Below are positions 2-13,051 of a DNA stretch of 13,051 bases, in pieces; position 1 is the stretch's first letter, and each line of letters starts with the position of its first letter. The stretch covers positions 1 through 13,051 of the forward strand of contig DAIENX010000013.1 of assembly GCA_027340875.1 (NCBI GenBank), given 5' to 3'. The translations under genes and the position numbers were made by a program. The notes beneath the pieces are model-generated. The model saw nothing but the letters and a program-made list of their open reading frames with translations. It was not told the origin of the DNA and searched no databases. Source of the DNA: Elusimicrobiota bacterium (GTDB lineage: Bacteria; Elusimicrobiota; Elusimicrobia; Elusimicrobiales; UBA9959).

Positions 2-871
2 CACTACCAGTACCGCCGCGACGACGACGCCCTTCCTTCCGCCCTGGCCAAGACCAAGGGCATAGAGTCCTTCGCGATGCCCATCATCCTGGACGGCGGC
101 AACCTGATGGTGGACAGCAAGGGCGACCTGTTCATGACCAAGCGCACCTACATCTGGAACTCCGGCAAGTCGGAGTCCGAGGTCAACTCCGCGCTGAAGT
201 CCTATTTCGGCGTCAAGAACATCTACACGTTCGAGTACGCCGGCTATCCCGGCGAGCCCGCCGACGGAACCGGCCACATCGACATGTTCATGAAGCTGCT
301 CAACGACCACATCGTGCTGATAGCCACGGCCGAGACCGAGCCCTTCAAGAGCAACGCCGAGAAGGCCATGGCCTTCTTCCAGGGCCGCAAGGCGCCGGAC
401 GGGCAGATGTACAAGATCGTCACGGTGAAGGGTTGGGAGGACAACGCCTGGTTCACCTATACGAACTCCCTCATAGTTAACAACGTGGCCATCATTCCCT
501 CCTATTCCGGACATCCCGAGGGCGAAGCCGCCGCGAAGGCCGCCTATGAGTCGGCGGGCCTGACCGTGGCCCCGGTGAATTCCGACGACAGCATCATGGC
601 CGGCGGCTCCATACACTGCACCACGCAGCTGATACCGGTGCTGCCCTCCAAGGCCGCGGTGGACATGACCGACGTGCCCGAGTTCGCGGATATTCAGGTT
701 AAGAGCGAGATCCCGGGAACATACGGGGATAATGGTCCTGCTTTAAGAAGTCTGCTATCCGGCCCATGGGATACTTCAGCCGGTGTCGGCGGGTTTACGT
801 CCCGGCATCAGACGCGCGCGAATCATTTCTTTGAAGCCGGTTTCGATAAAAATGGGGGGGGGCAACAGTAA
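2..871 (+). CDS. Agmatine deiminase / Porphyromonas-type peptidyl-arginine deiminase family protein, 5'-truncated by the window edge
   Basis: Frame 2 is open from base 2 (HYQYRRDDDALP...), so ATG 77 is internal. Family motifs are present: LDGGN, DGTGHIDMF (catalytic His/Asp), YTNSLIVN and GGSIHCTTQ (catalytic Cys). About 80 aa of non-family tail follows the catalytic Cys. Confidence 0.9.
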   Translation, partial: HYQYRRDDDALPSALAKTKGIESFAMPIILDGGNLMVDSKGDLFMTKRTYIWNSGKSESEVNSALKSYFGVKNIYTFEYAGYPGEPADGTGHIDMFMKLLNDHIVLIATAETEPFKSNAEKAMAFFQGRKAPDGQMYKIVTVKGWEDNAWFTYTNSLIVNNVAIIPSYSGHPEGEAAAKAAYESAGLTVAPVNSDDSIMAGGSIHCTTQLIPVLPSKAAVDMTDVPEFADIQVKSEIPGTYGDNGPALRSLLSGPWDTSAGVGGFTSRHQTRANHFFEAGFDKNGGGQQ

Positions 872-1124
872 GCCCTTCCCGGTCCCGCACCCTGTTCCTC
901 CGTATCATCCGCCGACCCCGCCGGTTCCTGCGCCGCACCCGTCAAATCCGGATAATGGCGCGGTCGAGGAGTGTAAAAAAGGCTGCGATGGTCAGTATAG
1001 CGGCTGGGTCTCCAATTGTAATTCTAATTTCCCGGACGATGCGAAAAAAAGGAAATTATGCTATGAGGCGGCCGCGAGAGATTATGCCAGGTGTCTCCGC
1101 AACTGCGAAAACAGATGCAGATAA
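852..1124 (+). CDS. Pro-rich linker + Cys-rich helical-hairpin domain; either a separate small protein or the frameshifted C-terminal extension of the deiminase
   Basis: The frame 3 ORF (GTG 783 or ATG 852) encodes PFPVPHPVPPYHPPTPPVPAPHP followed by Cx3Cx10C-x13-Cx10Cx3Cx3C. Its TAA (1122-1124) overlaps the next gene's SD. No clear SD precedes 852 or 783, so the start is uncertain. Confidence 0.6.
   Translation: MGGGNSKPFPVPHPVPPYHPPTPPVPAPHPSNPDNGAVEECKKGCDGQYSGWVSNCNSNFPDDAKKRKLCYEAAARDYARCLRNCENRCR
854..862 (+). repeat. G9 homopolymer tract at the junction between the deiminase frame and the Cys-rich frame
   Basis: AAT-GGGGGGGGG-CAACAG-TAA is read directly from the sequence. Confidence 0.9.
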
Positions 1125-1137
1125 GGGGGGACCGGTG

Positions 1138-1389
1138 ATGAAAAGAATTGAGTTCTTATATACAAAAGGCAATGTTAAGGAAAGCGGTTTCTTGACTATA
1201 TCCGATCCTGTTTTCGATCCCGGTATGAAAAATTGGTTTTCAGAAGTATTTTGCTCGATAGATAACAGGAATCATAAATTGTTCGGAGTTGATAAAGAGC
1301 AGGCGGTCGAACTTGCAAAGGGGTTTGTGGTTTCAAGGTATGAAAATTTCGAACTAAGAAAAAAAGATGGAACCCCCTTTGTGATCTAG
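1138..1389 (+). CDS. Small 83-aa protein, DUF6968-like; putative immunity-type protein
   Basis: SD-like AAGGGGGG (1123-1130) lies before GTG/ATG 1135/1138. The pattern I-x-x-P-x-x-D...W...GVDxxQAxxLA recalls DUF6968 (recognised by eye). Codon usage is AT-rich (18/60 GC at 1141-1200). Confidence 0.65.
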   Translation: MKRIEFLYTKGNVKESGFLTISDPVFDPGMKNWFSEVFCSIDNRNHKLFGVDKEQAVELAKGFVVSRYENFELRKKDGTPFVI

Positions 1390-1431
1390 CGGACTGACCC
1401 TTGCCAGTTTTCCCTTCTTTTCCGGAGTGTT

Positions 1432-1460
1432 CCGCCGGCCGCGAGCCGGCGGTCTTTTTT
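1432..1460 (+). terminator. Rho-independent terminator
   Basis: 8-bp stem CCGCCGGC / GCCGGCGG with a 5-nt loop, followed by TCTTTTTT. Confidence 0.85.
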
Positions 1461-1478
1461 GGGGCTGGCCGGGGGGGA

Positions 1479-1506
1479 TTGCCGCGTCTTTTTGGTAAGA
1501 TATTGT
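1479..1506 (+). promoter_or_regulatory. Possible sigma70 promoter for the two-component operon
   Basis: TTGCCG-N16-TATTGT ends 18 nt before ATG 1525. The same TTGCCG -35 occurs at 9927. Confidence 0.35.
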
Positions 1507-1524
1507 AGCCTGGAACGGGCGGCT

Positions 1525-2202
1525 ATGCGCGTACTTGTAATAGAGGACGAGGAAAAACTTTCGGCCTTCATAACCAAGGGGCTTTCGCAGGAAGGCTTCT
1601 CGGTGGATTCCGCGGCCAGCGCGGCCGAGGCGGACCGCCAGCTGCTCAACGGCGTTTACGACCTGGTGATCATGGACGTCAACCTGCCCGACGGGGACGG
1701 CTTCGCGCTGCTCGAGTCCATGAGGCGCGAGGGCGATCGCACCCCTGTCATAATGCTCACCGCCCGCGGTTCCGTGGACGACAAGGTCCGCGGCCTGGAA
1801 TCCGGCGCCAACGATTACCTCACCAAGCCTTTCGCCTTCCGCGAGCTGGTGGCCCGCGCCCGCGTACTGCTGCGCCCCGCCGAGAAGCCGGAGGACGTGC
1901 TGACGGCCGGCGACCTCAGCCTGGACGTGCGCTCCCGCCGCGTGACCCGCGCCGGCAGGAAGATAGAGCTAACCAACAAGGAGTTCGCGCTGCTTGAGAT
2001 GCTTTTGCGGAACTCCGGCAGGCCGGTCAGCCGGGCCGTGCTGTGGGAGCACGCCTGGGAGGGCTCCTTCGAGGTGGATTCCAACGTGCTCGACGTGCAC
2101 ATGGGGCGGCTCAGGCGCAAGGTTGACGCCGGAGCGGACGAGAAGCTCGTAAGGACCGTTTACGGCGTGGGTTACCAGATAGACGCCCCGGAGCGCGGAT
2201 GA
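1525..2202 (+). CDS. OmpR/PhoB-family DNA-binding response regulator (CusR/CzcR/QseB-like)
   Basis: MRVLVIEDE start, phospho-acceptor in VIMDVNLP, MLTAR, GANDYLTKPF, and a winged helix LTNKEFALL...SNVLDVHMGRLRRKV...RTVYGVGY. The likely start is ATG 1525 rather than TTG 1459. Confidence 0.95.
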   Translation: MRVLVIEDEEKLSAFITKGLSQEGFSVDSAASAAEADRQLLNGVYDLVIMDVNLPDGDGFALLESMRREGDRTPVIMLTARGSVDDKVRGLESGANDYLTKPFAFRELVARARVLLRPAEKPEDVLTAGDLSLDVRSRRVTRAGRKIELTNKEFALLEMLLRNSGRPVSRAVLWEHAWEGSFEVDSNVLDVHMGRLRRKVDAGADEKLVRTVYGVGYQIDAPERG

Positions 2203-3575
2203 CCCTGCGCCGCCGGCTGTCACTGCTCTATATGGCGGCTACGGCCGTCCTCCTCCTGGCGTCGGCGCTGACGGCCGTGCTGTTCTTCCAGCGCGGACTG
2301 AGGACCATCGCCGACCGCAAGCTGCTGGCCGCCGCCGATGAGGCCGCGGGCCTCCTGGAGAGCCCGGGTTCCCTCGGTCCGGAAGCCGCCAGGAGCAGGC
2401 TGAGCCGCTTCGCCGAGGGGTTGGACGGTTTCTACGTCTTCCTGCACGGGGCGGACGGGGCGCAGCTCTACGCTTCCGACCCGCAGCTGGGCGCCGTCTG
2501 GCCGGCGTCTCAGGCCGCCTATCCCCAGGAAAAGGCGGTGTTCGCCTCCCGTACGCTGCCGTCGGGAGAACGGCTGCGCACCGTCAGCCTGGGGCTGCCG
2601 GCCCCGCGCGGCGCGTTGCTGCAGCTCGGGCTGCCGGTGCCTTCCCCGCTGGCGGCCCTTTCCGCCGACAGCTGGTACCTGCTCGCAGCGCTGTCCCTTT
2701 TGCTGCTGGCCGGCGCCGGCTGGGCGGGCTGGGCCATAGCCGGCCGCGCGCTGGCCCCTATAGACCGAATTGCCGAGGTGGCGCGCAAAGCCGGGGAGGG
2801 GGCGCTGAACGGCCGCATACCCCGCCATGCGGGCGAGGACGAGCTGGGCCGCCTGGTAGACGTGCTAAACGGCATGCTGGCCTCGATAGAGGCCTATTCG
2901 CTTAAGCTGAAGCAGTTCGCTTCCAACGTCACCCACCAGTTGAAGACGCCGCTTACCGTGATGCGCGGGCAGACCGAGGTGGCGCTGCTGGGCAAGCCAG
3001 GCCGGGAAGAGGCAGTGGCGGTGCTGGAGAGCAACCTGGCCGAGCTGGAGACGATGACGAGGGTGGTCGAGGACATACTGGAGTACTCCAGGCTCGACAG
3101 CCGGGAGTCCGGCGCCGCGAAGGCGGAGCGGTTGGACAAGCTTGTCTCCGCCGTCGCCAGGAAGGCGGCCGTCCTGGCCATGCCGAAGTCGCTGAAGATC
3201 GAGACCTCGCTGGCGGAGGCGACAGCCGCCGTCCAGGCCGGCAAACTGGAACAGGCCCTGCTGAACGTCATCGACAACGCAGTCAGGCATACTCCCGCGG
3301 GAGGCCGGATAATCCTTGCCGTCTCTCCGGAGGGAGGGGGAGCTGCCGTTACCGTAAGCGATACCGGCCCCGGCGTTCCGGAGGCGGATCTGCCACGGCT
3401 CTTCGAGCGCGGCTATTCCACCTCCGGTTCCGGACTGGGCCTGGGCCTGGCCAGGGCCATGCTGGAGAGCTTCGGCGGCAGGATAGAGGCTTCCTCGCCG
3501 CCGGGTTCAGGGCTCCGGGTCAGGATACTGCTGCCGGCCCCGCCTCAGAACCTTCCTTCCAGGCCCACCGAATAG
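2199..3575 (+). CDS. Membrane sensor histidine kinase (TM-periplasmic-TM, HAMP, HisKA, HATPase_c)
   Basis: ATGA overlap with the regulator. Two hydrophobic segments, HAMP (ALAPIDRI...DELGRLVDVLNGML), H-box THQLKTPLT, N-box LLNVIDNAVRH, G1 DTGPGV and G2 GSGLGLGL. Confidence 0.95.
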   Translation: MTLRRRLSLLYMAATAVLLLASALTAVLFFQRGLRTIADRKLLAAADEAAGLLESPGSLGPEAARSRLSRFAEGLDGFYVFLHGADGAQLYASDPQLGAVWPASQAAYPQEKAVFASRTLPSGERLRTVSLGLPAPRGALLQLGLPVPSPLAALSADSWYLLAALSLLLLAGAGWAGWAIAGRALAPIDRIAEVARKAGEGALNGRIPRHAGEDELGRLVDVLNGMLASIEAYSLKLKQFASNVTHQLKTPLTVMRGQTEVALLGKPGREEAVAVLESNLAELETMTRVVEDILEYSRLDSRESGAAKAERLDKLVSAVARKAAVLAMPKSLKIETSLAEATAAVQAGKLEQALLNVIDNAVRHTPAGGRIILAVSPEGGGAAVTVSDTGPGVPEADLPRLFERGYSTSGSGLGLGLARAMLESFGGRIEASSPPGSGLRVRILLPAPPQNLPSRPTE

Positions 3576-4513
3576 ACCCTGTCAGTGTAGGTCTTTAGCG
3601 ACACGTTGGAGTGGTTGTCCAGGTAGGTGAACGAGCCTTCCGCGTACAGGCCCTTGGCCAGCGTGAACACCGGCTTTATCCTGAACGAGTACGTGGCGTC
3701 GCTGCGCCGCTTCAGGAAGCGGGAATCGACGTTGTCGTAATCCTTAGCCACCAGCGACGCCGACGAGACCAGCTTGAAGCGCGACGACCACCTGCTGATC
3801 AGGCCCAGCACGGCCGAGCGGGACTTATAGTCGTAGTCCGGGCCGGCCGCGGCGTTGGTCTTGGAGCGCAGGCTGAGGAAGGCGAGGTGATTTTTCTGGA
3901 AGCGCCTGCTGGCGGACAGGTAGAGAGCGCCGGTATCGGCGTCCTTCTTCGCGTTGGTCCTGACATTGTCGCGGCCGCGCTCGTAACCGCCCTTCAACCT
4001 GAGCCCGCCGGGGCCGCGCCAGATGAGCCCGCCGTTGACCGCGCCGTCCTCGGCTATGGTCCCGGTCTTGTCGCCTATCAGGTCCAGGCTCCAGCCGAGG
4101 TCCAGGCCCCAGCCCTTGCCGAGGTCCGGAGTAAGGCCGACGGCGAAGGAATGGCCGTGGTAGCTGAAGGTCTTATGCGTGCGGTAGGCGTAGTCGTCGT
4201 AGGAATAGGATAGCTCCAGGCCCGCCTTGGAGGCGAAGGCCGGGTCCGCCGTGAACCCCGCCGAGAGATGCCGTATGTTGTCCTTCACCTTCGCGTCGCT
4301 GTTCACCGGTGAGTTGACCAGCAGGTGCGAGATGTTGGCGTCCGAGACCGTTGAGAGCCCGCCCGTGGCCTCCCAGGTCTTCGGCTCCGGCTTGCGGCGG
4401 GGGGCGGCTGCCTCCCCTCCCTGGCGCGGATATTTCTCCGAACGCACGTCCTGGGCGGCCGCTCCCGCGGCCGACAGCAGGACTATCGCGACAAGCACTT
4501 GTAGCAGTTTCAT
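3545..4513 (-). CDS. Outer-membrane beta-barrel protein, Slam/DUF560 barrel-like
   Basis: Sec signal (MKLLQVLVAIVLLSAAGAAA|Q), alternating amphipathic beta-strands, and a terminal beta-signal YSVGLEGRF. The C-terminal R-x-D...Y-x-x-N-x-SN-x4-Y pattern resembles DUF560 barrels. The barrel call is firmer than the subfamily call. Confidence 0.75.
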   Translation of the reverse strand: MKLLQVLVAIVLLSAAGAAAQDVRSEKYPRQGGEAAAPRRKPEPKTWEATGGLSTVSDANISHLLVNSPVNSDAKVKDNIRHLSAGFTADPAFASKAGLELSYSYDDYAYRTHKTFSYHGHSFAVGLTPDLGKGWGLDLGWSLDLIGDKTGTIAEDGAVNGGLIWRGPGGLRLKGGYERGRDNVRTNAKKDADTGALYLSASRRFQKNHLAFLSLRSKTNAAAGPDYDYKSRSAVLGLISRWSSRFKLVSSASLVAKDYDNVDSRFLKRRSDATYSFRIKPVFTLAKGLYAEGSFTYLDNHSNVSLKTYTDRVYSVGLEGRF

Positions 4514-4540
4514 AGGTTCTCCTTCGCCGGCTCGCCCTTT

Positions 4541-4933
4541 TTAGCCCTTTTCGGGCTCCGTGGCCGGCCTTACCCTGATGTCCAGGTCCCTGCGCGCCGA
4601 GTCCACCCTCTTTTTCACGAAGACTGGGTTAAGGCCCAGCTTCAGGCTGATGGCTCCCCAGCCGTAACCTTTCCGGTTCTCGGCCAGCAGGTCCTTCAGC
4701 TCCTGCCGGGACATTTCGGCTATAACGAAGATCTTCACGATCTCGCCGTAGCCGAACCCGGCGGCCCTGAGGTCCGCGATCTCCTCCCCTGAGCGGTTGA
4801 AGTAGAAGGAGACTGCTTTGGTCTTGGAAAGCCCGACTTCCGGGCCTTTCGGAGGAACGGCCAGGGCGTTCCCGAGGAACGCGAACGAAAAGGCCAGGGC
4901 CATCAATACGGATATGGTAGTGGTCTTTTTCAT
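4541..4933 (-). CDS. Exported 130-aa hypothetical protein with two GxG(Y/W)GxI repeats
   Basis: ATG at 4933 sits 2 nt after the upstream stop. Signal peptide MKKTTTISVLMALAFSFAFLGNALA; motifs LRAAGFGYGEI and NRKGYGWGAI. The upstream part of track ORF 4541..5410 is a shadow frame. Confidence 0.8.
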   Translation of the reverse strand: MKKTTTISVLMALAFSFAFLGNALAVPPKGPEVGLSKTKAVSFYFNRSGEEIADLRAAGFGYGEIVKIFVIAEMSRQELKDLLAENRKGYGWGAISLKLGLNPVFVKKRVDSARRDLDIRVRPATEPEKG

Positions 4934-4935
4934 AG

Positions 4936-5436
4936 TCAGTCGTCCAGCCCCGGGTCTTCCTGCTCTATCACGTCCCCCTTGTCGTCCTCCCCGTGCGCTT
5001 CGTCGGCGCCGTCTTCCTTCTCCACCTGCTCGATCTCCTTCTCGTCCTGTTCGGCTTCCTTCTCCAGACCGGCCGGGACGCCCTCTTCTTTCTCCGGAGC
5101 CTCGATCTCCTTCTCCGTCTCCTTCCAGGCCGCGTCGGCCTCCGCCGCGTCCAGCTCCGCCAGCGACTCTTTCATCTCGCGCGACCCGAACTCGGCCATG
5201 GCCAGCAGACCCTTCAGCTCGGTCTCGTCGCCGTTCCGGCCGGGAGCGTCCTGCTCGGCCGCGTCCAGCTCCAGCGCGGCCGCGGCGGCGGAGTCCTCGT
5301 TCCCGGCGCCCGCGCCTTCGTTTTCGGGCGGGGTGACGGCGCGCACCGTGCCCGACAGGGACAGCGACGCCGCGATCACCGCCGCGGAGAGGAGCGCCGT
5401 GGCGCTCCACCGGGATGTCAATTTCGAGATGCTCAT
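4936..5436 (-). CDS. Exported highly acidic low-complexity protein (166 aa)
   Basis: SD GAGG precedes ATG 5436. Signal-like N-terminus ending VRA, then an E/D/A-rich body (KETEKEIE, QDEKEIEQVEKED) with GC3-rich codons. Confidence 0.75.
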   Translation of the reverse strand: MSISKLTSRWSATALLSAAVIAASLSLSGTVRAVTPPENEGAGAGNEDSAAAAALELDAAEQDAPGRNGDETELKGLLAMAEFGSREMKESLAELDAAEADAAWKETEKEIEAPEKEEGVPAGLEKEAEQDEKEIEQVEKEDGADEAHGEDDKGDVIEQEDPGLDD

Positions 5437-5478
5437 ATTTACTGCCTCTAAGCGCTTTATCTGTTGTCTCATACCGAG

Positions 5479-5484
5479 ATTATA
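5479..5484 (-). promoter_or_regulatory. Perfect -10 box (TATAAT) upstream of 5436, with no consensus -35
   Basis: The minus strand reads TTAGTATAATCTC in an AT-rich intergenic gap. Confidence 0.45.
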
Positions 5485-5503
5485 CTAAAGCGCCGGTCCG
5501 CAT

Positions 5504-5533
5504 CGGCCGGCCCTGGCGCGTCAGGGCCGGCCG
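5504..5533. terminator. 12-bp GC hairpin after the 5542..6096 gene (terminator or mRNA-stabilising stem; no U-tract)
   Basis: CGGCCGGCCCTG - GCGCGT - CAGGGCCGGCCG is a perfect inverted repeat. Confidence 0.55.
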
Positions 5534-5541
5534 GGAAGCCG

Positions 5542-6096
5542 TCAGTCGCCCGACTCGGGCGGTTCGGCGGCCTCGTGGTCCTCCGCCTCTATCTGTTCGC
5601 CTTTGCTGTCGGCTTCCGATTCGAGATCGGAGTCGTTCTCCTTCTCGGCGCTCTCCAGCTCCTTCACGTCCGAGTCCTCGTCCTTCAGCTCTTTGCTGTC
5701 GCTCTCCTCGTCGAGGTCCTTCTCGTCCAGCTCGGAGCTCTCCTTGCTGTCGGAGGAGTCCTCGTCCAGTTCCTTCTGCTGCGCCTCATCGCTCTCCAGC
5801 TCTTTCTCGCCGGAACCGCCGGCGGACTTGACTTCCTCCTCGGCCGGCTCGGTCTCCTTCAGCTCGGTTTCGGGCGCTGAGGCCTTCTCCTTGATCTCGG
5901 CGGAGGAGCTTTCCTTCTGCTCCTTCTCCGAAGCGGAGACCGTCTTCTGCTTCTTCTGCACCACGGCGCTTTCATGCTCCTCCTGCGCCGCCTCGTCCGG
6001 GGCGGCCGCGGCCTGGCGCGCGTACGGCAGAAGCAGGGCCAGCCCCGACAGCAGTACCGCGCAGTTCCACAGGTTCTTCCTCACGTTGGTTTTCAT
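5542..6096 (-). CDS. Exported highly acidic, probably disordered protein (184 aa) with degenerate KEL(D/E) repeats
   Basis: Strong SD AAGGAG and a signal peptide ending AAA. The mature part is dominated by E/D/S/K and has no aromatic residues. Confidence 0.85.
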   Translation of the reverse strand: MKTNVRKNLWNCAVLLSGLALLLPYARQAAAAPDEAAQEEHESAVVQKKQKTVSASEKEQKESSSAEIKEKASAPETELKETEPAEEEVKSAGGSGEKELESDEAQQKELDEDSSDSKESSELDEKDLDEESDSKELKDEDSDVKELESAEKENDSDLESEADSKGEQIEAEDHEAAEPPESGD

Positions 6097-6178
6097 AAGT
6101 TTCTCCTTTCTTTCTCTTTAACGCCCCGGCCGGCTTAAGCGGGCCGGCAGAGATCTTAGTATGTCCGGCTCCCGCCGC

Positions 6179-6749: not shown

Positions 6750-7748
6750 TCAATTCCCTTCGGGGGTAAGCGGCACGTTCAAAGACGAGCCGTCCATGGA
6801 GAACTCCATCGTGTCGTTGAGATCGGTGCGGAACACCCTGGCGCCTATGTCCTGCAGGCGGCCGAGAGCCTCCTGGGTGGGGTGGCCGTAGTTGTTGTCT
6901 GCGCCAACCTCAATGTAGGCGCGGGAGGGCTTCACGGCATCGAGGAAAGGCATGGTGGAGGAATACTTGCTGCCGTGGTGGCCGACCTTCAGCACGTCGG
7001 CCCTGAGCTCGGCGCCGTACTTGGCCGTTATGCCGGCCTCGGCGCTGCCCTGCACGTCTCCGGTAAAAAGGATGGAGGAGCCTTTGTAGCTCAGTTTGAA
7101 CATGATGGAGCAGTTGTTGAGCACTTCGCCCTTGTTGGTGGCCAGGGGCTGCTGGCAGGCGTTGAAGACCTTTATGTCCACCCCGGGCTCGCTCCAGTCC
7201 ATCTTCTGCCCGGCCTCGGGGTAGAAGAAGGCTACGCCCTTGTCATGCGCTGTCTGGCGGAGCTTCTCGTCGGCCTTGGTGCCGGTGTTGTCCACGCGGG
7301 TATCGTAGAAGTTCCTGACGGGGAGGTTGGAGAAGACGTACTGCAGGCCGTTATAATGGTCGCTGTGCGGATGCGTAAGCACCACGTCGTCTATCGCGGT
7401 GACGTGCTTGGCCGCCAGGAAGTGGGCCAGCGAGCTGGTGGGGTAATTGGAAGGGCCTCCGTCTATAAGGGCGTTGTGCCCGCCGGGGAGCTCTATATAT
7501 ATGGAATCACCCTGGCCCACGTTTATGAAGTAGACGTTGAGGCCGGGAGCCGCGGTGTAGAGGGTGGCGTTGGAGGGGACCGGGGCGAGGGGGACCTGGG
7601 TTTCCGGGGCGCCGAGCCTGAGCTGGTCTATGGCCCGCTCCGCATGCGCCTGGGCGGCAAAATGGAATACGGCTAGGAAGGAGAAAACGGCTGCGAACAC
7701 GGCTTTAAGGACTGCGGGTGCTGGAGAGTTCTTTCTCACGGGGTGCAT
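6750..7748 (-). CDS. Exported ComEC/Rec2-type metallo-beta-lactamase-fold hydrolase (stand-alone domain)
   Basis: SD GGAGGT before ATG 7748 and a signal peptide ending AHA. Motifs FINVGQGDS, LIDGG, LTHPHSDHYNG (HxHxDH), NNCSI, FTGD, LKVGHHGS, NNYGHP and RTD. No multi-TM Competence domain. Confidence 0.9.
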   Translation of the reverse strand: MHPVRKNSPAPAVLKAVFAAVFSFLAVFHFAAQAHAERAIDQLRLGAPETQVPLAPVPSNATLYTAAPGLNVYFINVGQGDSIYIELPGGHNALIDGGPSNYPTSSLAHFLAAKHVTAIDDVVLTHPHSDHYNGLQYVFSNLPVRNFYDTRVDNTGTKADEKLRQTAHDKGVAFFYPEAGQKMDWSEPGVDIKVFNACQQPLATNKGEVLNNCSIMFKLSYKGSSILFTGDVQGSAEAGITAKYGAELRADVLKVGHHGSKYSSTMPFLDAVKPSRAYIEVGADNNYGHPTQEALGRLQDIGARVFRTDLNDTMEFSMDGSSLNVPLTPEGN

Positions 7749-7924
7749 ATCCACCTCCCACTTGCCTGCTGCCTGGTGGCGCATTAAAAGCGAACGCGCC
7801 GCGCTTTCGGCTCAGGCCGCCTTGAGCATGGCTCATCGCGGCGCGAGCAAGGCCTAGTGGTGAATCCGGCTTACGGTCCGGAGGTGGATGCTCCCCGGCC
7901 TATCCCGGGGATTACACAGAAGCC
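7749..7924 (-). ncRNA. Candidate structured cis-regulatory 5' leader (no known family recognised)
   Basis: Nested inverted repeats: 7749-7758/7880-7889 (10 bp, SD/anti-SD), 7758-7762/7856-7860, 7764-7770/7846-7853 (one bulge) and 7795-7803/7837-7845 (9 bp). Additional hairpins at 7865-7882 and 7892-7911. Confidence 0.55.
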
Positions 7925-8082: not shown

Positions 8083-9675
8083 ATGGGTAAGATCATGTCC
8101 GAGAACGGGGAAATAGAATTTAATGAGCAGTTCTCCAGAGCCCTGCACCTGGCGCAGAGCGGCGGCCGCAATATCTTCATAACCGGCAAGGCCGGCACCG
8201 GCAAAAGTACCCTGCTGCGCTATTTCCGCGCCCATACCGCCAAGAAGATAGTGGTCCTGGCCCCTACCGGCGTTGCGGCCCTGAACGTGGCGGGGGAGAC
8301 TATACACTCTTTTTTCCGCTTCAAGCCGGGCACTACTCCGGACAAGGTGAAGCGCGCGCGCAAAAAGGACGCGGAACTGTACAAGGCGCTGGAGGCCATA
8401 GTCATAGACGAGGCCTCGATGCTGCGGGCCGACCTGCTGGACTGTGTGGACGCCTTCATGCGCATCAACGGCCCTGCGCCCGGCACCCCCTTCGGAGGGG
8501 CCCAATTGATACTTTTCGGGGACCTTTACCAGCTGCCGCCGGTGGTGACTTCCGCGGAGCGGGAGCTGTTCTCCTCCCACTACGCTGGACCCTATTTCTT
8601 CAACGCCAGGGTCTTCAAGGAAACCGCCATCGAGTACATAGAGCTGGAGAAGATCTACCGCCAGAAGGACCAGGGCTTCATAGACATCCTCAACGCCATA
8701 CGCAACAACCGCGTGAGTGCCGCGCAGCTGGCGCAGCTCAACCGGCGCGTCGGCGCGGACGTGGAATCCGGCAAGCGCGGCATCACGGTGCGGCTGATGA
8801 CCACCAACGCGGACGCCGCGGAGATGAACAACGAGCGCCTGCGGGCCATAGACGGCCGGGCCCACGTCTACCGCGCGGAGATAGACGGCGAATTCTCCCG
8901 CGATTCCTTCCCGGCCGAAGAGGAGCTGCACCTGAAGGCCGGCGCGCAGGTGATGATGCTCAATAACGACCCCGACGGCCGCTGGGTGAACGGCACGATG
9001 GCCGTGGTGCACGACATCATGAAGGGCCCTCCCGGAGAGGAGGACGTGGTGCACGTGCGTCTGGCGGACGGCTCGCTGGAGCCGGTGGCGCCGAACGCCT
9101 GGGAGCTCTTCCATTACAGCTTCGACAAGGAAGCGAAGAAGATAATCGCCGAGACCGCGGGCACGTTCAGGCAGTACCCGCTCAGGCTGGCCTGGGGCAT
9201 CACGATACACAAGAGCCAGGGCAAGACCTTCGACCGGGCCACGATAGACCTGGGGAAGCGGGCCTTCGCCGCCGGCCAGACCTACGTGGCGCTCTCGCGC
9301 TGCACCGGGCTGGAGGGGCTTTCGCTGGCCCGCCCGGTCCGCGCTTCCGACGTGATGACCGACTGGCGCATAGTCCGCTACGTGACCGGGCGCCAGTACG
9401 GCGCCAGCGAGGAGCTGCTGCCCCTGGCCGGCAAGGTGAAGCTGATAGAAGAGGCCATAAAGGCCGGAAGCCTGCTGGAGATGACCTACCTGAAGGCCTC
9501 GGACGAGAAGAGCCGGCGCGTCGTGCGGCCGCGCTCCGTGGGGGAATGCCGCTACAAGGACTTCACTTTCACCGGCCTGCAGGCCGACTGCCTTAAGCGC
9601 GGCGAGCGCCGTACCTTCAGGGTGGACAGGATCCTGGAGCTGAAGGCGGTGGAGGGACCTGCCGGTAAATCGTAG
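8083..9675 (+). CDS. Pif1/RecD-like SF1B 5'-3' DNA helicase with C-terminal WYL domain
   Basis: Walker A TGKAGTGKS, LAPTGVAA, GETIHSFF, Walker B IVIDEASM, FGG..LILFGDLYQLPPV, L..IYRQKD, QYPLRLAWGITIHKSQGKTF and GQTYVALSR. The WYL-type tail reads MTY...RRVVRP...C..RGERRTFRVDRI. The start may be ATG 8095. Confidence 0.93.
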   Translation: MGKIMSENGEIEFNEQFSRALHLAQSGGRNIFITGKAGTGKSTLLRYFRAHTAKKIVVLAPTGVAALNVAGETIHSFFRFKPGTTPDKVKRARKKDAELYKALEAIVIDEASMLRADLLDCVDAFMRINGPAPGTPFGGAQLILFGDLYQLPPVVTSAERELFSSHYAGPYFFNARVFKETAIEYIELEKIYRQKDQGFIDILNAIRNNRVSAAQLAQLNRRVGADVESGKRGITVRLMTTNADAAEMNNERLRAIDGRAHVYRAEIDGEFSRDSFPAEEELHLKAGAQVMMLNNDPDGRWVNGTMAVVHDIMKGPPGEEDVVHVRLADGSLEPVAPNAWELFHYSFDKEAKKIIAETAGTFRQYPLRLAWGITIHKSQGKTFDRATIDLGKRAFAAGQTYVALSRCTGLEGLSLARPVRASDVMTDWRIVRYVTGRQYGASEELLPLAGKVKLIEEAIKAGSLLEMTYLKASDEKSRRVVRPRSVGECRYKDFTFTGLQADCLKRGERRTFRVDRILELKAVEGPAGKS

Positions 9676-9986: not shown

Positions 9987-10016
9987 ACGGCTCATTATCA
10001 CGGGAACAAAGTGAAC

Positions 10017-13000
10017 ATGCGGGGGCACGGGGTTTATCGCGTCTTTATCCGGCGGATGTCATGTCTGGCCGCGATCATCGTTTTCGCCGCGGCGGTCCCT
10101 CCGGCCTCGGCTCAGACCACGAATACGGCCGCGGCCATCGCCCCCATAAACCCGGAGTTCAGTCCCGCCAGGAGGCCAGGGCGCATGGCGGAGGTCACCT
10201 TGAGCGGGCACGCGCTTGGTTCCATTCCGGGGCCGTTCGATTCCTCGTACATGAAGGGCATGCACCCTTCGGACGTGATCATCAGCAGCGGCGGCATGCA
10301 GACAAGGGTGCCGTTCCACGCCATTACCGGGTATGCCGTTTCGTACGATCTGAGAACCCTTGGTAAGCTTACGCCAGTAAAGGATCAGAGCACTTGCGGA
10401 GCCTGCTGGACCTTCGCCGCTATGGCCACGCTCGAGTCCAGGCTGCTTACCGGGGAGACCTGGGATTTCTCTGAGAACAACCTCAAGAACGCGAACGGTT
10501 TTGACTGGACGCCGTGTGCCGGAGGCAACCGATACCTCGCCACGGCCTACTTTTCGCGCTGGAGCGGTCCCTGGACGGAAGCCGCAGACCCGTACAGCGT
10601 GACCGAAAATAAGCAGCTGGCGACCTATCCTTCCGTCAACGCGCAGAAACATGTCCAGGACGTGATATTCCTGCCTGACCGCGCCAGCTCTATCGATAAT
10701 GACAACATAAAGTGGGCGCTTACCAATTACGGCGCGGTCCACACCGACATGCGCTGGGAGGACCCCTCCTACAATGCCACTTATAAGTCGTATATCTACA
10801 CCGGCGCCGGGGTCGTAAACCACGGGGTCACGATAGTGGGTTGGGACGACAACTTCGACAAGAACAAGTTCGCCAGTGTGCCGGCCGGCAACGGCGCATT
10901 CATAATCCGGAATTCCTGGGGCGGCGTCTGGGGGGAGGGCGGGTACTTTTATATCTCCTATTACGACACCAAATTAACGAATAACACGGTATACGCCACT
11001 CCTGACTCCAACACCAACTACTACAGGATATATCAGTACGATCCATTCGGGCAGGTCTCCGCGACCGGTTACGGCTCCACCGTGGCCTGGTTCGCGAACG
11101 TCTTCACGGCGCAGGACGCCAATACGCAAGTGGACGCCGTAAGCTTTTACGCGCTGAGCGTAGGCGCCAGCTATGAGATATACGTCTATCGCGATATGCC
11201 AACGGCCGGCAATCCGCGCTCCGGCACGCTGGTGGACAGCCAGATCGGCTCGGTGAGCTATTCCGGGTATTACACCATACCGCTCACCACCAAGGTGCCC
11301 CTGACTAACGGCCAGGTGTTCACGGTCGTGGTCAAGATGACCACCCCGGGCTACAATTATCCTATCCCTATCGAATATCCGCTAGCGAATTTTTCCAGCG
11401 CGGCTACGGCCGCGGCCGGCCAGAGCTATGTCGGTCCGGACGGTGTCTCCTGGGGCGACGCCACCACGTCCGTCGGTGCCAACACCAACGTCTGCGTAAA
11501 GGCCTTCACCTCGGTGATGAACGACTCCACGCCGCCATCCAACATCGCCACGGTCAACGACGGCAGCGCCGCCGATATCACCTATACCACCAACAGCGGC
11601 CAGCTGCAGGCCAACTGGACCGCGTCGGCGGACGCGGAGAGCGGTATCCGCCGCTACTGGTACGCCATCGGGACGACCGCCGGCGGCACCGATGTGGTGG
11701 GCTGGACGGACAACAGCACTGTCACTTCCGTTACGAAGACCGGGCTTACGTTGACCAACGGTCAGGCTTATTATTTCACGGTCAAGGCGGAGAACTGGGT
11801 GGGTCTGCAGTCGGCGGCGACGAATTCCAACGGCCAGACGGTGGACACGACGGCGCCCGGAACGCCTGGGGCGGTGAACGACGGCTCAGGAGCGGATATA
11901 GCATATACCACGTCGGGCAGTCAGTTGCAGGCCAACTGGGGTGCGGCTTCGGACGCGCAGAGCGGCATCGCGCGGTACTGGTACGCCATCGGGACGACCG
12001 CCGGCGGCACCGACGTGGTGGGCTGGACCGACAACGGGGCCGCCCTGTCCGTTACGAAGACCGGGCTTACGCTGACCAACGGTCAGGCTTATTATTTCAC
12101 GGTCAAGGCGGAGAACAACGCGGGTTTGCAGTCTGCGGCGGCCAATTCCAACGGCCAGACGGCGGACACCACGGCGCCGTCCGTTCCGGGCGCGGTGAGC
12201 GACGGCGCCGGCGCCGATATCGCGTACACGGCCTCCGCCACCCAGCTGCAGGCTAACTGGACGGCTGCCGCGGACGCGCAGAGCGGCATCGCGAAGTACT
12301 GGTATGCTATAGGAACCACCGTGGGCGGCACCGACGTGGTGGGCTGGACCGACAACGGGGCCGCCCTGTCCGTTACGAAGACCGGGCTTACGCTGACCAA
12401 CGGTCAGGCATATTATTTCACGGTCAAGGCTGAGAACGGTTCCGGGCTGCAGTCCGGCGCCGTCAATTCGAACGGCCAGACGGTGGACACTACCGCGCCG
12501 GGCAACGTCTCCGTTGTCAACGACGGCACCGGCGCGGATATCGGCTATACCACGTCGGGCAGCCAGCTGGCGGCTAACTGGACCACCTCCTCTGACGCGC
12601 AGAGCGGCATCGCGAAGTACTGGTACGCCATCGGGACGACCGCCGGCGGCACCGATGTGGTGGGCTGGACCGACAACGGCGCGGTCCTTTCCGTTACGAA
12701 GACCGGGCTTACGCTGACGGACGGGCAGGTGTATTACTTCAGTGTCAAGGCGGAGAACGGGGCCGGGCTACAGTCCGGCGCCATCAACTCCAATGGTCAG
12801 ATGGCGGATGCGTCGGCGCCGTCCGTTCCGGGCGCGGTGAGCGACGGCGCCGGCGCCGATATCGCGTACACGGCCTCCGCCACCCAACTGCAGGCTAACT
12901 GGACGGCTGCCGCGGACGCGCAGAGCGGCATCGCGAAGTACTGGTACGCCATCGGGACGACCGCCGGCGGCACCGATGTGGTGGGCTGGACCGACAACGG

Positions 13001-13051
13001 CGCGGTCCTTTCCGTTACGAAGACCGGGCTTACGCTGACCAACGGTCAGGC
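10017..13051 (+). CDS. Large secreted papain-like (peptidase C1A) cysteine protease with lectin-like domain and tandem FN3-like repeats; 3'-truncated by the window edge
   Basis: Frame 3 is open from GTG 10011/ATG 10017 to the end (>1000 codons, hand-translated). Signal peptide ending ASA|Q; SYDLR..TPVKDQSTCGACWTF (Cys 10404), NHGVTIVGWDD (His 10821) and IRNSWG..WGEGGYFYISY (Asn 10911). Then YQYD...FANVF...GYYTI...NVCVKAFT (lectin-like domain typical of prokaryotic C1A proteins), followed by repeats. Confidence 0.93.
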   Translation, partial: MRGHGVYRVFIRRMSCLAAIIVFAAAVPPASAQTTNTAAAIAPINPEFSPARRPGRMAEVTLSGHALGSIPGPFDSSYMKGMHPSDVIISSGGMQTRVPFHAITGYAVSYDLRTLGKLTPVKDQSTCGACWTFAAMATLESRLLTGETWDFSENNLKNANGFDWTPCAGGNRYLATAYFSRWSGPWTEAADPYSVTENKQLATYPSVNAQKHVQDVIFLPDRASSIDNDNIKWALTNYGAVHTDMRWEDPSYNATYKSYIYTGAGVVNHGVTIVGWDDNFDKNKFASVPAGNGAFIIRNSWGGVWGEGGYFYISYYDTKLTNNTVYATPDSNTNYYRIYQYDPFGQVSATGYGSTVAWFANVFTAQDANTQVDAVSFYALSVGASYEIYVYRDMPTAGNPRSGTLVDSQIGSVSYSGYYTIPLTTKVPLTNGQVFTVVVKMTTPGYNYPIPIEYPLANFSSAATAAAGQSYVGPDGVSWGDATTSVGANTNVCVKAFTSVMNDSTPPSNIATVNDGSAADITYTTNSGQLQANWTASADAESGIRRYWYAIGTTAGGTDVVGWTDNSTVTSVTKTGLTLTNGQAYYFTVKAENWVGLQSAATNSNGQTVDTTAPGTPGAVNDGSGADIAYTTSGSQLQANWGAASDAQSGIARYWYAIGTTAGGTDVVGWTDNGAALSVTKTGLTLTNGQAYYFTVKAENNAGLQSAAANSNGQTADTTAPSVPGAVSDGAGADIAYTASATQLQANWTAAADAQSGIAKYWYAIGTTVGGTDVVGWTDNGAALSVTKTGLTLTNGQAYYFTVKAENGSGLQSGAVNSNGQTVDTTAPGNVSVVNDGTGADIGYTTSGSQLAANWTTSSDAQSGIAKYWYAIGTTAGGTDVVGWTDNGAVLSVTKTGLTLTDGQVYYFSVKAENGAGLQSGAINSNGQMADASAPSVPGAVSDGAGADIAYTASATQLQANWTAAADAQSGIAKYWYAIGTTAGGTDVVGWTDNGAVLSVTKTGLTLTNGQ
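11523..13051 (+). repeat. Intragenic tandem repeat, 321 bp / 107 aa, about 4.8 copies visible (FN3/Ig-like)
   Basis: Units start at 11523, 11844, 12165, 12486 and 12807. Consensus DTTAP...V(N/S)DG.GADI.YT...QLQANW....DAQSGI.(K/R)YWYAIGTTAGGTDVVGWTDN...SVTKTGLTLTNGQ.YYF.VKAEN..GLQS...NSNGQ. Confidence 0.95.

Follow-up and report, generated by a model that had tools for sequence, protein, structure and literature searches.

A candidate toxin tip and its partner gene in a foreign cassette at the 3′ end of a secreted deiminase gene of an Elusimicrobiota bacterium

We analysed a 13,051-nt stretch of an Elusimicrobiota genome (contig DAIENX010000013.1), hereafter the window, which starts at a contig end within a gene for a peptidyl-arginine deiminase (Table 1). 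The deiminase frame runs from position 2 to a TAA stop, which follows a run of nine G (G9) and the letters CAACAG. A four-letter step within the tract gives DKNGGGNSKPFPVPHP, which stays open as far as the stop at 1122-1124. An earlier note on this DNA, made from the letters alone, had described the G9 tract just ahead of the deiminase stop, the shifted frame through a Pro-rich linker into a Cys-rich domain (hereafter the tip), and a tightly coupled small AT-rich gene followed by a terminator. All of these were confirmed. Precisely, the small gene has 37% GC, starts 13 nt past the tip stop behind a G-rich run resembling a ribosome site, and encodes what we call the partner protein. Apart from the frame break, neither the tip nor the partner ORF carries a lesion in the window.

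Further downstream, the window holds a two-component regulator and kinase, behind which lie three minus-strand ORFs for secreted proteins, one barrel-like (322 aa) and two very acidic (together 1525-6138). There follow a PIF1-like helicase with a C-terminal WYL domain (8083-9675, plus strand) and a secreted papain-family protease (10011-13049, plus strand) that has a lectin-like domain and repeats of about 100 aa in tandem and is truncated where the contig ends.

Table 1. Features at the deiminase-cassette locus, in window positions
Feature	Position	Strand	Basis or remark
Peptidyl-arginine deiminase, 3′ part, Porphyromonas-type, secreted	2..688	+	PF04371 and likeness to genome G023; resident DNA
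Foreign linker in deiminase frame, 60 codons	689..871	+	ends at TAA 869-871
Foreign cassette in place of the resident gene's final 97 bp and spacer	690..1431	+	synteny with G023, fall in GC3
G9 run, most likely the site of a one-base frameshift	854..862	+	base count, codon model
Pro-rich linker (tip frame)	864..962	+	common to L034, L028 and P0014
Six-Cys helical-hairpin tip, candidate toxin domain	963..1124	+	stop at 1122-1124; alignment and AlphaFold2 model
Partner protein, 83 aa, candidate immunity protein	1138..1389	+	directly 3′ of the tip; distant DUF6968-like lead
Intrinsic terminator, resident, kept from the deiminase locus	1432..1460	+	8-pair GC hairpin and T tail

The deiminase ORF matched PF04371 in a domain search with E 1.8e-28 (100 bits, against a cut-off of 25). 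Its 5′ half lies on contig C3, which overlaps the window by 141 nt and carries a start that looks by eye like a signal peptide. The orthologue in genome G023, to which positions 2-689 are 94% identical, matches the Porphyromonas gingivalis enzyme PPAD (chain 4yt9_A) with E 1.2e-19. The WxRDY, HxD, YTN and HC motifs of this enzyme align in the G023 orthologue and are kept in the window genome, where the function is predicted. The native tail is about 40 residues long, and in the window copy a foreign linker stands in its place.

Positions 690-1431 are an inserted foreign cassette. Since G023 is collinear on both flanks, matching 2-689 and 1432-4732 (89% over the latter), the cassette takes the place of 97 bp. 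GC3 is 0.91 before 689 and falls to 0.50 in the linker, 0.58 in the tip and 0.39 in the small gene; native deiminase tails have 0.72-0.96. The DNA of 2-689 is present in all 24 same-genus genomes searched and that of 700-1430 in none of them. A relative without the cassette is represented by contigs of sequencing runs X3 and X4, which join 689 directly to 1516. No flanking repeat was found around the window cassette. The terminator hairpin behind it is conserved in G023 at 91%; a terminator scan returned 3 terminator-like sites against 1.4 in shuffles, which taken alone is weak. No RNA data set was listed as carrying positions 600-1500.

We read the orthologous locus in 19 of the 24 same-genus genomes, and in 19/19 the deiminase gene has no tip at its end. 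These genes end about 40 residues past the catalytic Cys (47-55 codons counted from the CxTQ motif; the window gene has 84), mostly ahead of a terminator-like hairpin. Among the 79 other genomes of the family, 70 have the deiminase and none bears the tip on it; the only one of these 70 with a tip, G199, has it on a contig other than that of its deiminase. The deiminase is therefore not a constant body carrying variable tips, as a polymorphic-toxin carrier should be. The earlier note had cast it as an unexpected N-terminal carrier and proposed looking for fused or variable C-termini at orthologous loci; none was fused, and that role falls away. Because the cassette is missing from the orthologue loci and the tip occurs elsewhere in one of the 79 family genomes, the deiminase is, judging from these comparisons, a chance host of the cassette and not an evolved or dedicated carrier.

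As a separate observation, the native deiminase tails (L002-L020) end in a conserved A/S-[VL]-[DE]-Q-L-L motif, and a metallo-beta-lactamase-fold ORF in the window (6750-7784, minus strand) has a similar word, AIDQL, behind its signal peptide. By eye, this could be a sorting motif.

In the six aligned tips, six Cys, Arg33, Tyr37, Ala40 and Arg49 are invariant, and there is no invariant His. AlphaFold2 modelled the tip as a hairpin of two helices (residues 2-25 and 30-54, pLDDT 93). Cys positions 7 and 51, 11 and 47, and 22 and 36 fit one antiparallel register on this model, and because the three pairs share it, the model suggests three nested disulfides. The tip had no match among PDB sequences and gave nothing at cut-off in Pfam, NCBIfam or PHROGs; the fold search returned generic helical hairpins (best Z 8.0) with no fold match above background, and an atlas match at 0.76 was uninformative. 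The 90-aa tip ORF as sole query found no homologue among longer proteins, and a profile of the six tips matched only three proteins, all from known loci or near them. Neither tip nor partner was found in viral contigs, phages or plasmids. A weak plasmid match in a DUF4150 protein (E 0.5) was rejected as a tip, being mid-protein and without the Cys pattern.

The partner shows no signal peptide by eye, and its relatives are 35-48% identical. Its model (pLDDT 91) consists of strands and one helix, with a core of three strands plus the helix, and may resemble the N-terminal domain of the HicB antitoxin. In the structure search, the best rows were dsRNA-binding domains (Z 6.4; 59 residues aligned at rmsd 3.1), a Z below the level that would separate relatedness from a common arrangement; Foldseek with the same model gave no match at E 0.001. 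Sequence matches in the PDB all had E >0.1, and nothing reached the cut-off in Pfam, NCBIfam or PHROGs. By language-model features, the nearest clusters are those of DUF6968 (PF22302), a family of the same size, at 0.88-0.89, which is a lead only. Two of seven aligned partner relatives match the DUF6968 model weakly (best E 0.032) and the window protein does not; the model matched 0/301 genomes, the window genome included, in a scan in which the controls gave no match either. We found no paper with the term DUF6968. The HMM and structure searches proposed in the earlier note for both products were run, and they yielded this weak lead for the partner and no family at cut-off.

Several candidates were discarded along the way. 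The weak plasmid matches of P0005 lie within a serine-hydroxymethyltransferase-like ORF, a partner match in G325 (E 0.0098) is another gene, the genus matches L024 and L025 are chance matches of Pro/Gly-rich sequence, and P0015, a cluster mate of P0007, is ATPase-like and unrelated. Two repeat proteins, P0006 and P0009, were excluded from the alignments.

Whole tips were collected from the phylum genomes, from a metagenome scan (8 loci) and from one cluster member (P0014), which gave seven cases. In 7/7 (the window genome G000, G199, G225, G351, G384, L034 and P0014), the tip is followed directly by the partner on the same strand, which supports the polymorphic-toxin-like tip with a downstream partner proposed in the earlier note. 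This count is partly circular. Tip and partner profiles also match the same 5 of 401 phylum genomes; this overlap, too, is partly circular because the loci behind the tip profile had been reached via the partner gene, and it means only that no additional tip without a partner turned up.

The carriers vary. In 4 of the 6 other cases, the tip is the C-terminal part of a longer protein: L034 is a signal peptide, a subtilisin (PF00082), a linker and the tip in frame, the sole intact enzyme-tip fusion found; G351 has a signal and a beta-rich domain, and G384 a signal and a coiled coil; P0014 combines coiled coil, tip and, joined behind it, partner in one chain of 335 aa. The earlier note would have given way if the Cys-rich ORF always stood alone, which is not what these four show. 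G225 has a tip without a carrier. In G199, a stand-alone 118-aa tip ORF overlaps a large gene at its end, and a second remnant of a tip lies behind the G199 partner. There is also a tip remnant behind a kinase gene (L033) and a decayed copy in G003 (E 5.5e-4) with no partner match. Six subtilisin loci, two of them nearly identical, end at the L034 junction with the partner kept and the tip gone, and in 4 of these 6 the partner is frameshifted. Orphan cassettes and left-over partner genes are thus both present (the second remnant of G199, G225 and the six subtilisin loci). Starts resembling signal peptides were seen by eye on the deiminase, L034, G351 and G384, and none on P0014 or G199.

Some features of these loci are recorded here in their own right. 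P0003 and P0013, cluster mates of P0014, are separate partner proteins, and P0014 is either a natural read-through or an assembly slip. At the G199 locus (L039, the same as L028), a 56-nt direct repeat (4596-4651 and 5614-5669, 77% identity) flanks the cassette, and its exact core of about 23 nt contains the stop codon of the upstream gene, as if the cassette had integrated with a duplication; the repeat is AT-rich, and chance could also produce it. An AAA_21-type ATPase gene follows the partner gene in both L029 and L030 (G351 and G225). The decayed tip of G003 lies just upstream of a papain-like protease gene (L023:1475-2977) similar to that at 10011-13049 of the window. G384 also has an island (L045:4597-13947) in which secreted-looking proteins of low GC3 alternate with or accompany small partner genes. 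A copy of a phosphoribosyltransferase-like 3′ end stands on either side of the island, which suggests an insertion with duplication.

Over 228 aa, the carrier of the G384 tip shares 30% identity (E 1e-20) with the secreted protein that comes next. That protein has two Ntox16 domains at its end (E 1.8e-16), and a DUF6714 gene follows it. The G384 tip carrier was compared with 10 further Ntox16 loci and matches 6 of them (E 1e-14 to 1e-27). In the G384 carrier family, the C-terminal position is thus taken by this tip in one copy and by different tips in others, and one carrier family with exchangeable tip-partner pairs is the polymorphic-toxin template. Ntox16 was found in 13/401 phylum genomes; its carriers in Elusimicrobiota (L055-L069) are either of a 370-390 aa signal-peptide coiled-coil type or have frames of about 900 aa, and both types have a gene for 160-230 aa next. 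We found no paper on Ntox16 carriers in this phylum. The Ntox16 model (PF15523) matched 0/6 tips and nothing in the window genome. The possibility that the tip is itself an Ntox16 domain was rejected, with an hhalign probability of 0.1% and the signature of that family, R and [DNE]xxH (PMC3482391), missing.

On the whole, we consider it somewhat probable (roughly 0.6) that the window holds a toxin-tip and immunity cassette of an undescribed polymorphic-toxin pair of Elusimicrobiota that was recently grafted onto the deiminase, and whose tip was then cut off by a one-base slip. The data themselves establish the limits of the cassette, the pairing of tip and partner, the variety of carriers and the frameshift, and the toxicity, the immunity and a once in-frame graft are the predicted part. 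In intact homologues, a Sec-exported carrier would bear the helical hairpin behind a Pro-rich linker, its six Cys most likely pairing into three nested disulfides after export, and the small cytoplasmic protein encoded just behind would shield the producer. The exported, disulfide-stapled tip would harm related cells, most likely inside or at the inner membrane, because Ntox16 sits on the same carrier family and the partner appears cytoplasmic. Against this, an exported tip with disulfide bonds and a partner in the cytoplasm call for a route of uptake, and nothing in the data supplies one. It also counts against this reading that neither protein reaches the cut-off of a toxin or immunity family, that L034 is the sole intact fusion to an enzyme, and that the G199 tip stands alone with no signal peptide. 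The cassette would recombine into the 3′ ends of genes; in the lineage of the window, it would have replaced the native tail of the secreted deiminase in frame, after which a slip in the G run of the Gly codons would have severed the tip. The present allele would then yield a complete deiminase with a foreign tail of 60 residues and the partner protein, and no exported tip, which would be the same end state as that of the tipless subtilisin loci.

As regards the site of the break, the tip frame is open upstream to 747, so that, going by stops alone, any point within 747-868 might be the site. A codon model trained on 102 mid-GC3 ORFs of the window genome favours the deiminase frame over 747-853 (-1.5 against -8.4 bits for the tip frame) and places the best crossover at 854-860, with 845-866 flat within about 1 bit. 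A high-GC3 model, a poor fit for cassette DNA, prefers a crossover at 749 and not the tract. The chance of a 60-codon open frame is about 0.056. The linker ahead of the tract has no significant likeness to the homologue linkers (shuffle p 0.44, 0.09 and 1.0), and homology was rejected both for other linkers and for the native tail (shuffle p 0.09-1.0, with 3/19 tails <0.05). Because the codon models disagree, the open frame has p of about 0.056 and the linker lacks a homologue, we consider a former in-frame fusion of deiminase and tip likely rather than established.

The same cassette might be governed by the G run as a working phase switch between a plain deiminase and a deiminase-carried toxin, a reading that we consider unlikely. 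Slipped-strand switching is known for tracts of nine G, and runs of G or C of at least nine letters number 10 in the 2.8 Mb genome. The break maps to this tract, the deiminase domain is kept in both states, tip and partner are otherwise whole, and the cassette-less relative is present in two of the same sequencing runs. A loose precedent comes from interbacterial secretion loci, where slips within G runs have been reported and proposed as regulation (PMC9900821, as far as the accessible part of that paper goes). Yet contigs from 4/4 runs read across the tract with G9 in all, no other letter and no gap, although these runs (X1-X4) come from one study, possibly the source samples, and contigs drop rare variants. 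Moreover, the matching stretch of 5/5 homologues (L027, L028, L029, L030 and L034) holds no G-run of at least 5, the fusion of deiminase and cassette is private to the window genome among 80 family genomes, and indels land in such runs by default. A long G run at the frame break is thus present, but a tract kept in homologues is not. Of the two options of the earlier note, switchable or recently broken, the second fits better, and breakage at the G run is the simplest reading. We hold improbable the wider proposal that a carrier-promiscuous toxin cassette arms ordinary Sec-exported enzymes by taking the place of their 3′ tails, with the G run as a live deiminase/deiminase-toxin switch against the co-occurring cassette-less relative.

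It is likewise unlikely, in our estimate, that the pair is no weapon at all. The tip would then be a disulfide-stapled domain for binding, anchoring or protease inhibition, and the partner a chaperone or regulator that accompanies it. The tips differ in net charge from -5 to +3, fusions are to enzymes with jobs of their own, and no toxin family or fold matched above background. On the other side, the patchy distribution (5/401), the repeated decay, the interchange with Ntox16 and a partner that outlasts the tip form the pattern of a conflict gene.

We give little credit to the reading in which the cassette landed as an orphan, never functionally fused, with its tip silent or started separately (GTG 783 or ATG 852) and chance as the cause of the open deiminase frame. 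The tip frame open from 747, the carrier-less tips at or near gene ends in G199 and G225, the linker without a significant homologue and the high-GC3 model that does not choose the tract would all agree with it. Against this stand the low chance of the open frame, the preference of the mid-GC3 model for the deiminase frame before the tract, and the lack of a run resembling a ribosome site ahead of 783 or 852. The junction at 689 also falls within the coding tail, and so does that of L034, whose fusion is in frame.

An artefact, namely a chimeric contig or a homopolymer error, might be suspected from the contig break within the deiminase gene and the genome contamination of 5.5%, but it is very improbable, because contigs of 4/4 runs agree and G9 is thus not an error of one assembly (single contigs cover 69-2200, 1-1571 and, twice, 628-1545, crossing tract and both junctions without differences) and the contig break is explained by the co-occurring relative.

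The favoured reading, a grafted cassette later broken, would mean that a small candidate toxin-immunity pair without a family name exists in a little-studied phylum. What the locus appears to record is a new toxin architecture in the making, in which a cassette rides on a housekeeping secreted enzyme, intact on the subtilisin and broken on the deiminase. Should it prove toxic, the tip, a disulfide-stapled hairpin of 55 residues in which no catalytic motif can be recognised, would represent a new kind of antibacterial tip. Our literature search found no paper on toxin-immunity systems of Elusimicrobiota beyond the 2012 survey, and no on-topic paper on peptidylarginine deiminase in Elusimicrobia; the word deiminase was not found in the accessible part of the text of that survey (PMC3482391).

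When compared with known folds, the partner core of three strands and a helix is like that of dsRBD-like proteins, and the likeness is middling. Ntox16 (PF15523) with DUF6714 is the closer parallel at the level of organisation, being likewise a Cys-rich all-helical tip on the same signal-peptide and coiled-coil carrier family with a small gene next; in contrast, our tip has no sequence or profile likeness to Ntox16, and the partner is a different, smaller protein. Polymorphic toxins have the toxin-then-immunity order and exchange their 3′ cassettes (Zhang et al. 2012, PMC3482391), and subtilisin is listed there among the proteases of Sec-exported toxins, in the part of the survey available. 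With the Sec/T2SS polymorphic toxins described in that part (PMC3482391), the pair shares the carrier with a C-terminal tip, the gene order, the 3′ replacement, the orphan cassettes and the left-over immunity genes. It differs in that neither gene matches a described toxin or immunity family, though the survey may list the pair elsewhere under another name. The cassette is also not confined to one constant carrier: it is found on unrelated genes (deiminase and subtilisin) and beside others (a kinase gene and an outer-membrane protein gene). The polymorphic-toxin organisation is thus known, and what is new here is an unnamed candidate pair with an unusual freedom of carrier.
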